The translations under genes were made by a program, and so were the position numbers. Positions 59,828 to 62,819 of a DNA stretch of 64,000 bases are shown here, in pieces (the first letter of the stretch is position 1; each line of letters opens with the position of its first letter). This DNA is from Klebsiella phage KP182, in sequence record OM337876.1. One strand, written 5' to 3'. The notes beneath the pieces were generated by a model, which saw only the letters and a program-made list of their open reading frames with translations, did not search any database and was not told where the DNA came from.

Positions 59828-59858
59828 CTAACAAGATTATAGTATCACCGAAGAACAG
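59828..59858 (-). promoter_or_regulatory. T4 early-type promoter; also the left copy of a direct repeat (59828-59884) flanking the MTase/nuclease cassette
   Basis: + strand tatagtatcac ... aaagtaaactactttttaaaatttgtgatgaatac. Confidence 0.5.
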
Positions 59859-59884
59859 GAAAGTAAACTACTTTTTAAAATTTG
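59828..59884. repeat. Direct repeat copy A (about 50 bp; promoter core + aaagtaaac[t/a]actttttaaaatttgtg) flanking the cassette
   Basis: Pairwise comparison with 62195-62253 shows an 11/11 identical -10 block and a 33/35 identical downstream block. Confidence 0.5.
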
Positions 59885-60659
59885 TGATGAATACTTCTAC
59901 TGTACTGCCTTTGCCCTTTATCTGGTATGAGTTGAATGTGTATTTTTTGTCCAAAAAATGAACATTATACTTAGATGCCCATTTCTTTAACATAGTATTA
60001 GTTTTTCCTTGATGCTCGAACACATTGCTCATTCCAAACTTTAGGCCTTTGGCGTGGCACTCATCAAGAAAGTCATATAACTTCTGCTCTTCTTCTTCAG
60101 ACCAGAATTTATTGTAATCTGCTACAGTAATCAAATACGGAGGGTCTGCATAAACAAAATCGCCATCCTTCAGTTCAACATCAGTAAAGTGTTTACTGCT
60201 GAACTCAATTTTATCTGAGTTTTCTATGAAGTGTAAAAACTTCTTTTTGCTGTTTTTATTGACTTCGCGACGGCCAAATGGAGCAGTAAATCTTCCATTA
60301 GATATACGTATCATATTGCTAAAGCTGTAGTATTGTAATACTAACAGCAATAGTGGGTCATGCGTTGAATTGTATTCATCACGCAATTTATAGTATGCTT
60401 GCTCGTGTTCCGGATGTTTACCTAGATTTCTTTCGGTAATGATATTCATAACGTCATCCCAAGAACAGGATTTCATTTTAACATACATGTCAATTATTTC
60501 AGACTGAATATCATTACTTAGCACAGGTCCAGGAACATTCAGCGATACTGACAGACCACCACAAAATAAATCAACAAATCGTGTATACTCTGGAAACAGC
60601 TGAAGCAAATCTTTAATTAACTTCTGCTTATTTCCAGTGTATGAAATTGCTCCTAACAT
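59868..60659 (-). CDS. dam: DNA adenine methyltransferase Dam (GATC m6A), T4 Dam orthologue at a non-T4 locus
   Basis: 263 aa; 'MLGAI.YTGNKQ.L...[23 protein letters not shown]' and '[21 protein letters not shown]' match T4 Dam. Confidence 0.92.
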
Positions 60660-60715
60660 AAAGGTTTAATAACCTCTTAAATATCCAGATGATTAGCGTC
60701 ATCTGAAATTAGATA

Positions 60716-61552
60716 TTAATGATTAAACATATTTTCTAAATCTTGAGGATCATCTAACTCATAGTTGCGGATATACAGGTGCTTTACTTTACTGCCTTCG
60801 TTGCTTCTTCCTTTAAAATTTTGGCTATACATAAAATCCATATCAGTTATAATATAATCCTTGTATAACTCGCGATATAATTCGCAATCTGAGTGTATTA
60901 ACAGCCATTTTGCTGGTGTGTCTTTTAGACATTTAGCAAGCTGCCGGTGAAGAAGCTCACTTTCCCCATCGTTGTTACCGTTGCCGTAATCTGAATTGCG
61001 TTCAAAGTACGGAGGGTCCAAAAAGATAAAATCATCTTTATTGGTCATTGATATAGTTTTATCAAATCCTTGCAAATATATTTCCGAGTTCTTTAAAAAG
61101 TTGTGATGGGCCTCAGACAAATTGCACGTGAATGATTTATACCATCCAAAAGGCGCATTTAATTTACCGGTTTTAGCATTAATGCGGTCCATGCCAGAAA
61201 ACACTTGCTGCCTAATAAAAATCCATCTCAGTGTTTTAACTACAGGATCTGTATTTGTAAATTCGTCATCTCTGAATTTATAAAATAGCTTTTCGCGTTC
61301 TTCAATATCCATCGATTTCCAAATTTCAATGTTTTTCATTACTATATTAAACGAGGTTTCATCTGCCAGCGTTTTATAGCAATTTATAACATTTTCTCGT
61401 ATGTCCGATATAAGAGCAGGTTTTTCTAAGGCAAATGAAACCGCTGCACCTCCGGCAAACGGTTCTACTAAGCGTTTAAAACTAGGGAGAACCTTTTTTA
61501 TATGTTTTAATTCTTTACTTTTACCGCCTGAATATTTAAATATCGGTTTCAT
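60716..61552 (-). CDS. Second alpha-class N6-adenine DNA methyltransferase (Dam/DpnA family), distinct from T4 Dam
   Basis: 278 aa; N-terminal 'FKYSGGKSKELKHIKKVLPSFKRLVEPFAGGAAV' (Dam family motif X/I) and 'IFLDPPYF' (motif IV). Confidence 0.85.
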   Translation of the reverse strand: MKPIFKYSGGKSKELKHIKKVLPSFKRLVEPFAGGAAVSFALEKPALISDIRENVINCYKTLADETSFNIVMKNIEIWKSMDIEEREKLFYKFRDDEFTNTDPVVKTLRWIFIRQQVFSGMDRINAKTGKLNAPFGWYKSFTCNLSEAHHNFLKNSEIYLQGFDKTISMTNKDDFIFLDPPYFERNSDYGNGNNDGESELLHRQLAKCLKDTPAKWLLIHSDCELYRELYKDYIITDMDFMYSQNFKGRSNEGSKVKHLYIRNYELDDPQDLENMFNH

Positions 61553-62168
61553 TTAAGCTCTCTTTTATATCTTCAATTGTTATTCCAAACACTTTCATAA
61601 TATGAATAATTATGTCTACGGGTTTTATTCCATACCACGATGATTTAACATCATATATCTTTTTAATTAAAGCATTATTGAAAATACTAGAAGTTTTACT
61701 TGCATTTAATTTATTGATGTCTACACCAAAATATGTATGAGCATTAACTTCTTCTATTCCAATATTTTTCATTACGTGGTAATCTGCATAATCAACAGAC
61801 GGAATGGAATTTACATCGTTAGTAATTCTCATCCACATCATTTTAACATCTTTTCCAAATTGTAAACGACAAGCGTCTACAAATTGTGTAGCAAACGCTA
61901 CTGGAGCACCATGAGTATTTGAATTTCCGCTAGATTTTACATCTATAACGAGGGTTTCACCGTTTTTGCTAGCTACGATATCCACCTTATGCCCAGATTT
62001 TTTTCTTCCTGCTAACTTCATGCTAGATAGTACTACTTGGCGTTTAACCGTCCATCCGCGCTGTTGGAGTAAAGACACAATTGTGTCTTCATTCAGTTTC
62101 ATCCCTCTGGAAATTTTGGTTCCTTGCGTAACAGAACCTAAGTAATCCATTATTTTAATGTCTTTCAT
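61536..62168 (-). CDS. PD-(D/E)xK nuclease-like protein (candidate restriction-type endonuclease), first gene of the MTase operon
   Basis: 210 aa; 'HKVDIVASKNGETLVIDVK' gives D-x12-D-V-K spacing typical of the PD-(D/E)xK core; RBS GAGGAG; overlaps the MTase gene by 17 nt. Confidence 0.4.
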   Translation of the reverse strand: MKDIKIMDYLGSVTQGTKISRGMKLNEDTIVSLLQQRGWTVKRQVVLSSMKLAGRKKSGHKVDIVASKNGETLVIDVKSSGNSNTHGAPVAFATQFVDACRLQFGKDVKMMWMRITNDVNSIPSVDYADYHVMKNIGIEEVNAHTYFGVDINKLNASKTSSIFNNALIKKIYDVKSSWYGIKPVDIIIHIMKVFGITIEDIKESLNETDI

Positions 62169-62194
62169 ACTACACTCCTCATAACTAATAAGAA

Positions 62195-62225
62195 TATAGT
62201 ATCACATCCTTGCGGCAAAGTAAAC
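62195..62225 (-). promoter_or_regulatory. T4 early-type promoter for the nuclease-MTase-dam operon; right copy of the direct repeat (62195-62253)
   Basis: + strand tatagtatcac ... aaagtaaacaactttttaaaatttgtgcatgatatac. Confidence 0.5.
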
Positions 62226-62253
62226 AACTTTTTAAAATTTGTGCATGATATAC
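62195..62253. repeat. Direct repeat copy B
   Basis: See copy A. Confidence 0.5.
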
Positions 62254-62819
62254 CCGCCAGCACCAACTCGTGAAGGTTTTACTACTTCCATGAGGTGTTC
62301 GATACCGCCGGCAAACATTGGTGTGTACCGTATGACATTCTGGGACACTTCTTCTGCAACGAATATAATTATACAGTCTGCGACTTTATGTTTAAACATG
62401 GGCCCTAGATTTATTCCACTTCCATCTGGGAATGGACCATCTTTACCAGTCGTAACATTAATCCATGGCTTATGATTTGCTCGGTCATGAACAAAGTGTG
62501 TTTTAACTTCAACTCTAACACCTTGGTAGTGTGGATGAGCTAATACGTCCCAGGCCCATTCATATGGGTCGTTGTTATTATGGTCAACAACTTGATCGTT
62601 CACGTATCCATCGAGAAAATCTGCTACCACATACTCTGCCGGTATAGCAATTCTACATCTTTTAAGAACATCAATTCTATCTTGAGATGGATCGATATCT
62701 AAACTATATCTTGCAGTATCAATGATTTTTACTTTTGCTTCACCCCTTAGCTTATTCAAATCTAGGGTAAATGTCCGGAGTTGGTTCAATCTCTGCAGGG
62801 CTTTGTTCATCAATGCCAT
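62232..62819 (-). CDS. Hypothetical protein (195 aa from MALMNKAL; RBS GAGGAA), possible DenB (endonuclease IV) by position
   Basis: Adjacent to the rIIB-like gene as denB is in T4; sequence identity not verifiable from memory. Confidence 0.45.
   Translation of the reverse strand: MALMNKALQRLNQLRTFTLDLNKLRGEAKVKIIDTARYSLDIDPSQDRIDVLKRCRIAIPAEYVVADFLDGYVNDQVVDHNNNDPYEWAWDVLAHPHYQGVRVEVKTHFVHDRANHKPWINVTTGKDGPFPDGSGINLGPMFKHKVADCIIIFVAEEVSQNVIRYTPMFAGGIEHLMEVVKPSRVGAGGYIMHKF

Follow-up and report, generated by a model that had tools for sequence, protein, structure and literature searches.

What does a virulent T4-type phage do with a nuclease-like gene and two DNA adenine methyltransferases, set side by side at a position of the map where T4 has ndd.1 to ndd.6 only? 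This question is raised by three genes between denB and the ndd.x open reading frames (ORFs) of Klebsiella phage KP182 (OM337876.1), of which a stretch of 64,000 nucleotides (nt), hereafter the window, was analyzed. An earlier sequence-only reading had proposed that three co-oriented minus-strand genes behind one T4-early-type promoter form a single restriction-modification system with the architecture of DpnII, MboI and LlaDCHI. The genes and the promoter were indeed found there, and our data suggest that the cassette is a candidate restriction-modification module that includes a new nuclease family and has an unusual carrier, a virulent phage with hydroxymethylcytosine (hmC) DNA. The reading that we favor, with slightly better than even confidence, is that the slot holds two adjoining methylase modules: the first would be a mobile pair resembling a Type II restriction-modification system, and the second a dam gene without its partner. 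The elements of the cassette are as follows, with the evidence for each in parentheses.

62196-62225, minus strand: T4-early-type promoter of the cassette (sequence reading, pattern search)
61536-62168, minus strand: 210-amino-acid (aa) PD-(D/E)xK nuclease-like protein, candidate restriction endonuclease (ORF, motif, fold, and the ratio of nonsynonymous to synonymous substitution rates, dN/dS)
60716-61552, minus strand: 278-aa Dam-family (D12, alpha-class) N6-adenine DNA methyltransferase, here called MTase2 (Pfam, NCBIfam, PADLOC, DpnM structure)
60660-60715, minus strand: intergenic spacer of 56 nt between MTase2 and dam, with two RNA hairpins (RNA folding, homology)
59868-60659, minus strand: 263-aa T4 Dam orthologue (T4 Dam structures, identity, PADLOC)

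The surroundings of the cassette (topoisomerase gp52, ndd, small ndd.x-like ORFs, denB and rIIB) all lie on the minus strand as well. The ATG of MTase2 sits 17 nt inside the 3' end of the 210-aa gene, and through this overlap MTase2 is predicted to be translationally coupled to that gene. Because no promoter-like element was found between the three genes, they are likely to be co-transcribed. That the locus departs from the T4 map, as had been pointed out, is clear, with T4 dam lying between genes 61 and 56. Over positions 58800-63000, the window shares 99.4% identity with Klebsiella phage AShe-2020a and 98.4% with KP179 (genus Jiaodavirus, Tevenvirinae), and the canonical dam site was found to be empty in the latter, with no dam in its primase-to-dCTPase interval.

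The nuclease-like protein and its methylase

The 210-aa protein contains the segment HKVDIVASKNGETLVIDVK, in which the D-(x)12-D-x-K core that had been read from the sequence is present as D63-x12-D76-V-K78; the motif residues are E27/D28, D63, D76 and K78. Among five family sequences, D63 and K78 are invariant, and D76 is Asp in three and Asn in two. Sequence matches of the protein were all weak and were all to PD-(D/E)xK proteins (Hjc, phrog_6591, Cas4, DruK and ST1444): the catalytic motif of the Hjc-like ST1444 aligned to D63 and D76-x-K78, and Pfam Hjc (PF01870) was matched with an E-value of 7e-4 and 19.9 bits, under its cut-off of 21.1. Membership in a named enzyme family is not supported by these sequence and profile matches. 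Assignment as an Hjc resolvase was also rejected, on account of the sub-cut-off score, the length (210 aa with an extra domain, versus a single domain of ~120-140 aa) and the methylase-operon context. In an AlphaFold2 (AF2) model, with a predicted local distance difference test (pLDDT) score of 64 overall and 75-87 in the core, an alpha-beta-beta-beta-alpha-beta restriction-endonuclease-like core is followed by a helical C-terminal domain. The PD-(D/E)xK nuclease fold proposed by the sequence-only reading is thus supported by fold and structure searches and by this model. From here on we infer nuclease activity, methylation sensitivity, a recognition site and a biological target for the protein.

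The 210-aa gene is under purifying selection: its dN/dS is ~0.18 versus Salmonella phage STML-198, similar to that of denB, and the comparison with KP179 showed synonymous changes only, at 3 nt of the nuclease gene and 5 nt of MTase2. Homologues were sought in an index of 5.8 billion proteins (with single sequences and profiles), in 1.84 billion cluster representatives (scanned exhaustively with HMMER) and, by tblastn, in phage GenBank, IMG/VR and JGI metagenome contigs. In all those databases the family has three lineages only, namely Jiaodavirus, STML-198 and one metagenomic protein. The 210-aa protein therefore appears, by sequence, to represent a new and very rare family of predicted PD-(D/E)xK nucleases.

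Both methyltransferases match Pfam PF02086 (D12 class; 1.6e-37 for the 263-aa protein and 6.3e-36 for MTase2) and score above the cut-off of NCBIfam TIGR00571 'dam' (167.9 bits for MTase2). The 263-aa protein is a bona fide T4 Dam orthologue, as had been claimed: it matches the T4 Dam structure 1yfj at 4.4e-104 over residues 1-260, is 62% identical to T4 Dam over the full length and 99.6% identical to the Dam of Klebsiella phage KPV15, and carries the motifs FCGGLS and ADPPY; its top PADLOC model was an orphan methyltransferase (1.7e-108). MTase2 was correctly seen as a second alpha-class enzyme distinct from T4 Dam. Its identity to T4 Dam, E. coli Dam and DpnM is 25-29%, its nearest solved relative is DpnM (2dpm, 1.6e-25), and its top PADLOC model was a Type II methylase (MTase_II, 3.6e-53), not an orphan. 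Motif I (EPFAGGAA), the ribose-binding Asp (D50) and LDPPYF are all retained in MTase2, and both methyltransferases look catalytically competent. In the structures of T4 Dam and E. coli Dam, GATC is read by a beta-hairpin, and the corresponding hairpin of MTase2 (FSGMDRIN…APFGWY) keeps the Arg, Asn and Pro of Dam and DpnM. Given these residues and the conserved motifs, the MTase2 site is most likely GATC, or a sequence containing GAT. Relatives of MTase2 in bacterial genomes were limited to three distant loci with ~30% identity, and a literature search returned nothing on the methylases of KP179 or STML-198.

A D12 methylase lies directly downstream of the 210-aa-family gene, and overlaps it, in 3/3 contexts. 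Apart from the cassette itself, these are the following nuclease/methylase pairs.

6001-6618/6615-7460: pair of Salmonella phage STML-198 (locus L004)
568-1191/1178-2068: pair of a metagenome contig (L005)

The nuclease of STML-198 (gp067) is 62% identical to the 210-aa protein and the metagenomic one 27%, and the three methylases form one clade, with identities to MTase2 of 76% (STML-198) and 51% (L005). The nuclease therefore evolves faster than the methylase, which is typical of restriction-modification pairs. The STML-198 pair is flanked by rIIB.1 and denB, across denB from the position of the cassette, and has no adjacent T4-type dam, so that the nuclease and MTase2 appear to move as a two-gene unit. 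The next-closest relatives of MTase2, which are on viral contigs, are likewise overlapped from upstream by nuclease-like ORFs of 190-245 aa: those of IMG/VR contigs L015 (295-867) and L016 (2296-2997) match the profile of the 210-aa family, that of L017 passes as Pfam RE_EcoO109I (1.2e-7), and those of L018 and L019 are near the threshold for NERD/VRR-NUC. Overlap and conserved linkage of this kind are what a nuclease dependent on its methylase should show. Of the proposal that the nuclease and Dam-type methylases constitute a restriction-modification system, the conserved linkage of nuclease and MTase2 supports the core, and the membership in the DpnII type is the part that falls.

The variable slot and the dam module

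The full cassette was found in two sequenced phages, AShe-2020a and KP179, which make up 3/142 related records (KP179 was deposited twice). In four further phages (six records) of the KPV15 type, dam follows a different overlapping ORF of 190 aa, with a 79-aa ORF in addition, and the remaining ~130 records have the 79-aa ORF only; dam is thus present in about 9/142 Jiaodavirus records. Instead of a 2349-bp segment, cassette-free Jiaodaviruses have 292 bp with the 79-aa ORF, which has an early-promoter copy to itself and for which no family match was found (KpV477, L003 2571-2810; KPV15, L002 3983-4222). Homology to the cassette-free type ends at 59868 and 62218 according to BLAST, and the right junction lies just after GTTTACTT, within the promoter. 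Homology to the KPV15 type continues as far as 60681 and takes in 22 nt from the 3' end of the 190-aa gene of KPV15; positions 60660-60681 therefore seem to be a remnant of that gene, and dam would here have lost its own partner. The pair of 210-aa gene and MTase2 takes the place of the 190-aa partner and the 79-aa ORF. On these comparative data, the trio appears to consist of two independent modules side by side, in place of the single three-gene unit of the sequence-only reading. The slot is delimited by the following features.

59869-62217: variable segment of 2349 bp (BLAST break points)
59839-59868, minus strand: second copy of the same early promoter (GTTTAC 59868-59863, TACTAT 59844-59839)
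59825-59886 and 62182-62243: left and right copies of a direct repeat (repeat families D4, D7)
59693-59809: 38-aa ndd.x-like ORF, served by the second promoter copy

The cassette promoter has a -35 element GTTTAC at 62225-62220, an 18-nt spacer and a -10 element TACTAT at 62201-62196, and a Shine-Dalgarno sequence GAGGAG at 62180-62175 precedes the ATG of the 210-aa gene. Upstream, its A/T part runs into the stop codon of denB, and the second copy overlaps that of dam. The pattern GTTTACTT-N14-17-TACTAT has four exact instances in the window (17694-17722, 24425-24454, 59839-59868 and 62196-62225), all on the minus strand, with 0 expected; two of the four bracket the cassette, each overlapping the stop codon of the upstream gene. 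A generic sigma-70 scan of the window gave 15 sites versus 17.4 expected, which is no enrichment, and did not flag the T4-early promoters. The direct repeats that flank the cassette are 88-96% identical and lie 2357 bp apart. Cassette exchange would probably occur through recombination within the duplicated flanking early promoters. Promoter-mediated shuffling of modules has been reported in T4-type phages (PMC2839356, PMC4122927); no obvious PeSL stem-loop was found upstream of either promoter copy, where the 3' coding ends of denB and dam are located. In the spacer before dam, two hairpins are predicted at 60684-60707 and 60660-60677 (-15.8 kcal/mol, z -3.2), the second of which pairs the dam Shine-Dalgarno sequence AGAGG, beside the ATG, and may control dam translation.

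The partner of dam in KPV15 represents a separate family of 186-190 aa. The KPV15 190-aa ORF (L002 3352-3924, minus strand) overlaps dam and encodes the motif D-x13-E-I-K, the family motif being RKYD…IIEIKHQxGGGTAIDS. Homologues with 43% identity occur in about 150 Tequatrovirus records, and a hypothetical ORF overlaps the dam match in most of the sampled Tequatrovirus rows. In the two loci inspected in full, those of G28 and Shinka, dam has its canonical position between 61 and 56 and the homologue immediately precedes it. Dam-partner homologues are positioned as follows.

2971-3531: dam-partner homologue of vB_EcoM-G28 (L008)
2471-3031: dam-partner homologue in L009

Among 5.8 billion proteins this family forms 11 clusters, all of them from phage-like sequences. 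One record is annotated as 'putative DpnII restriction endonuclease', four of seven members match Pfam DpnII below threshold (E 8e-5 to 5e-3, best 8.3e-5), Pfam BanI is likewise matched below threshold, and hhalign gives a probability of 12.5% against DpnII. A leaning of the dam-partner family toward DpnII is thus suggestive, and a literature search found nothing on DpnII-like genes in Tequatrovirus. Between the dam-partner family and the 210-aa family, no sequence homology was detected outside the catalytic hairpin (hhalign probability 1%). The predicted folds of the 210-aa protein and of a dam-partner, the MX01 protein, are alike (Foldseek E 6e-5).

T4 itself (NC_000866, L077 17628-17710) has kept the last ~28 codons of the 186-aa partner, with 95% identity versus G28 (L008 2903-3531), and has lost the promoter and 158 codons through a 541-bp deletion with a CAAA microhomology junction. 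Because of this 3' stub, the 'orphan' Dam of T4 looks like a relic of a nuclease-Dam pair. Pairing of a nuclease with Dam is not universal, since the ORFs upstream of dam in Pseudotevenvirus and Krischvirus are small and unrelated.

Some side observations concern the neighboring genes. The ndd gene of the window is intact (151 aa); the annotation of the KPV15 record (L002 1592-2046) splits ndd into two ORFs, one of 324 and one of 132 bp, which suggests a frameshift or a sequencing error in that record. The mechanical ORF list gives denB as 62232-62903 on the minus strand (223 aa), with a TTG start 28 codons upstream; the PHROG match and the RefSeq annotation place the start at an internal Met, about 62759. 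A 98-aa denB.1-like ORF (62752-63048) overlaps this internal-Met start.

Proposed function of the cassette and rival explanations

In the reading that we favor, the slot would be a hyperplastic early-gene slot, and the cassette would be transcribed from its T4-type early promoter. MTase2 would methylate its site and thereby block cleavage by the 210-aa nuclease, and DNA that lacks both MTase2 methylation and cytosine hypermodification would be cut in the infected cell. The victims might be co-infecting or superinfecting phages, plasmids or under-methylated DNA. The phage's own DNA would be spared, because it would be methylated, would probably contain glucosylated hmC (glucosyl-hmC) and is depleted of GATC about five-fold. 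GATC is by far the most depleted palindromic 4-mer in the window (46 observed versus 241 expected, observed/expected 0.19; sites include 59293, 59319, 59661, 60748 and 61246). The observed/expected ratio is 0.18 in KP179 and 0.39 in the first 24 kb of T4, and the 12.6-kb locus of STML-198 has 0 GATC versus 33 expected. KP179 encodes a gp42-like hydroxymethylase, alpha- and beta-glucosyl-HMC glucosyltransferases, a dCTPase and endonuclease VII. Since genes for the hydroxymethylase, the glucosyltransferases and the dCTPase are present, the phage DNA probably contains glucosyl-hmC, in agreement with the earlier suggestion of an hmC-DNA phage. Alternatively, the pair may persist as a selfish module.

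Several points weigh against a restriction-modification pair. The Pfam Hjc score of the 210-aa protein is below the cut-off, and no curated restriction-endonuclease model of PADLOC was matched by this protein. Confidence in the AF2 model is moderate, and a rerun with a more diverse alignment gave a pLDDT of 60 versus 64. The hairpin loop of MTase2 is one residue longer than in Dam and DpnM. The distant members L015 and L016 carry N-S-K in place of D-x-K, so that the second acid is not kept universally; those copies may be either inactive or equipped with a shifted acidic residue. The rarity of the cassette in the genus argues against a large general advantage. Two further points concern the target and are the weak points of the proposed mechanism. 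The Klebsiella host is Dam+; if the site is GATC and N6-methyladenine (m6A) blocks the nuclease, the host chromosome is no substrate. The use against host DNA that the sequence-only reading had envisaged is then unlikely, and competing unmodified phages or plasmids are more plausible victims. Moreover, many enterophages avoid GATC, which leaves the selective target uncertain.

The alternative that fares best, although we regard it as unlikely, is that the methylases are anti-restriction or orphan enzymes and that the 210-aa protein is a structure-specific (Hjc-like) nuclease, a repair factor or a non-catalytic DNA-binding partner. In sequence searches, Holliday-junction resolvases score best (Pfam Hjc at 7e-4, phrog_6591 and ST1444), and D76 is replaced by N in the two distant members. 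What phage Dam methylases, among them that of T4, do in vivo has been described as unclear (PMC12707154), and surveys reported that most phage Type II methylases are without a recognized endonuclease partner (PMC10711547). However, overlapping linkage to one methylase clade is maintained across 27-62% identity and three contexts, other relatives of MTase2 in viral contigs are paired with RE_EcoO109I, the protein has ~80 residues more than Hjc and an additional helical domain at its C-terminus, and a gene for endonuclease VII is already present in the phage.

Doubt is stronger for a mark-and-cut scheme, which we regard as improbable. Here, a methyl-directed (DpnI/MutH-like) 210-aa nuclease would cut G-m6A-TC in cytosine-containing host DNA, the cassette methylases would complete the marking, and glucosyl-hmC would shield the phage DNA, as it does against DenA and DenB. 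This would suit the position of the cassette in the early host-shutoff neighborhood from ndd to denB, the gp42-like hydroxymethylase, two glucosyltransferases and dCTPase of the phage, and the Dam+ host, in which methylated GATC would be an abundant target; two GATC-type methylases in one operon look, in addition, redundant if they serve protection only. Neither sequence nor fold searches revealed a specific similarity to DpnI or MutH, however. Methylases occur without the nuclease (in T4, and the dam of the window), but the nuclease was never seen without a methylase in the contexts inspected, and this asymmetry is the signature of ordinary restriction-modification dependence. A methyl-dependent nuclease would need no methylase of its own in Dam+ hosts, and the dam-partner family leans to DpnII, which m6A blocks.

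A selfish or homing element is less probable again: the nuclease would cut cassette-free siblings near the ndd-denB slot, repair would copy the cassette, and the methylase would protect the carriers. The cassette is a discrete insertion bounded by repeats, it occupies different sites relative to denB in two genera, and free-standing homing endonucleases abound in Tevenvirinae. Presence in two sequenced phages among 142 related records would nevertheless be a poor yield for efficient homing, and recombination between promoter repeats explains the junctions. To our knowledge, the known homing enzymes of T-even phages are of the GIY-YIG or HNH type and need no methylase. A single three-gene GATC restriction-modification system of the DpnII/MboI/LlaDCHI type is hardly credible, since adjacency of two adenine methylases and a nuclease-fold protein, with DpnM as the closest solved relative of MTase2, is outweighed by the lack of a PF04556 match and of a PF01555 methylase, by the other gene order, and by the independent occurrence of dam and of the nuclease-MTase2 pair in other phages.

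A broader proposal goes beyond the cassette and is made here tentatively, as one that we think has less chance of being right than wrong but more than any of these rivals: T-even-type phages may wield nuclease-Dam modules as weapons, and T4 Dam may be the relic of one. Both the 210-aa/MTase2 and the 186-190-aa/Dam pairs would then be active, early and GATC-directed, and would hit DNA that is not both hypermodified and methylated. If this were true, such modules would be aimed at competing phages or, were they methyl-directed, at the Dam-methylated host chromosome, and the strong avoidance of GATC in these genomes would have an explanation. In T4-like phages, at least two PD-(D/E)xK families, unannotated and unrelated to each other, have their genes immediately upstream of Dam-type methylase genes. 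Should these nucleases prove active, virulent hmC phages would be equipped with restriction-modification modules for conflict with other phages or with the host, and some 'orphan' phage methylases would have to be reinterpreted as survivors of such modules. The 210-aa family is a new candidate family for restriction-enzyme hunters, and a side result for T4 specialists is that dam is accompanied in most Tequatroviruses by a nuclease-like partner gene, which T4 has lost.

Comparison with known systems

The cassette resembles the DpnII, MboI and LlaDCHI systems in that it combines a D12 alpha methylase closest to DpnM with a linked gene of PD-(D/E)xK fold, and in that GATC is the probable site of MTase2. 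The likeness ends there, and the architecture that had been assigned to the cassette is not borne out. A DpnII-type system has one alpha methylase of the D12 class, one beta methylase (PF01555) and a PF04556 endonuclease, as in the genuine DpnII-type locus L013, in which all three were recognized, the endonuclease matching PF04556 at 7e-89. In contrast, both cassette methylases are D12, the 210-aa protein gave no PF04556 match at E<1, and hhalign against a true DpnII enzyme gave a probability of 1%. The gene order of the cassette (nuclease, methylase, methylase, with the nuclease first and overlapping) also differs from that of the canonical DpnII system. The carrier here is a virulent phage, with probable glucosyl-hmC DNA and an early phage promoter, and the second methylase, unlike in DpnII systems, is an unrelated T4 Dam that seems to be left from another module.

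The 263-aa protein has the same motifs as T4 Dam, but its gene sits between denB and ndd.x, not between 61 and 56, and is preceded by a foreign nuclease-methylase pair instead of the usual 186-190-aa partner. With archaeal Hjc/Hje resolvases and AF1548-like PD-(D/E)xK proteins, the 210-aa protein shares the E…D…(D/E)xK arrangement. It differs from Hjc in its ~80 additional residues, its C-terminal helical domain and a conserved N-terminal QGxKIxxG, and, unlike Hjc/Hje, it appears to be obligately linked to a methylase.

Restriction-modification functions encoded by viruses are known from chloroviruses (R.CviAI/M.CviAI, GATC) and from phage P1 (EcoP1I), each with a nuclease and a protecting methylase. 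The chlorovirus nuclease is thought to attack host DNA, the viral DNA being methylated. The KP182 cassette, which is described here from its genes only, belongs to other enzyme families, and its host is already Dam-methylated and its own phage DNA probably hypermodified. As in PeSL shuffling, the cassette is bracketed by near-identical early promoters, with one junction inside a promoter; the stem-loop half of PeSL was not seen at the cassette promoters. A parallel in layout is provided by the dam-partner pairs of T4-like phages, in which, as in the 210-aa/MTase2 pair, a short PD-(D/E)xK-like ORF overlaps the start of a Dam-family gene in an early operon.

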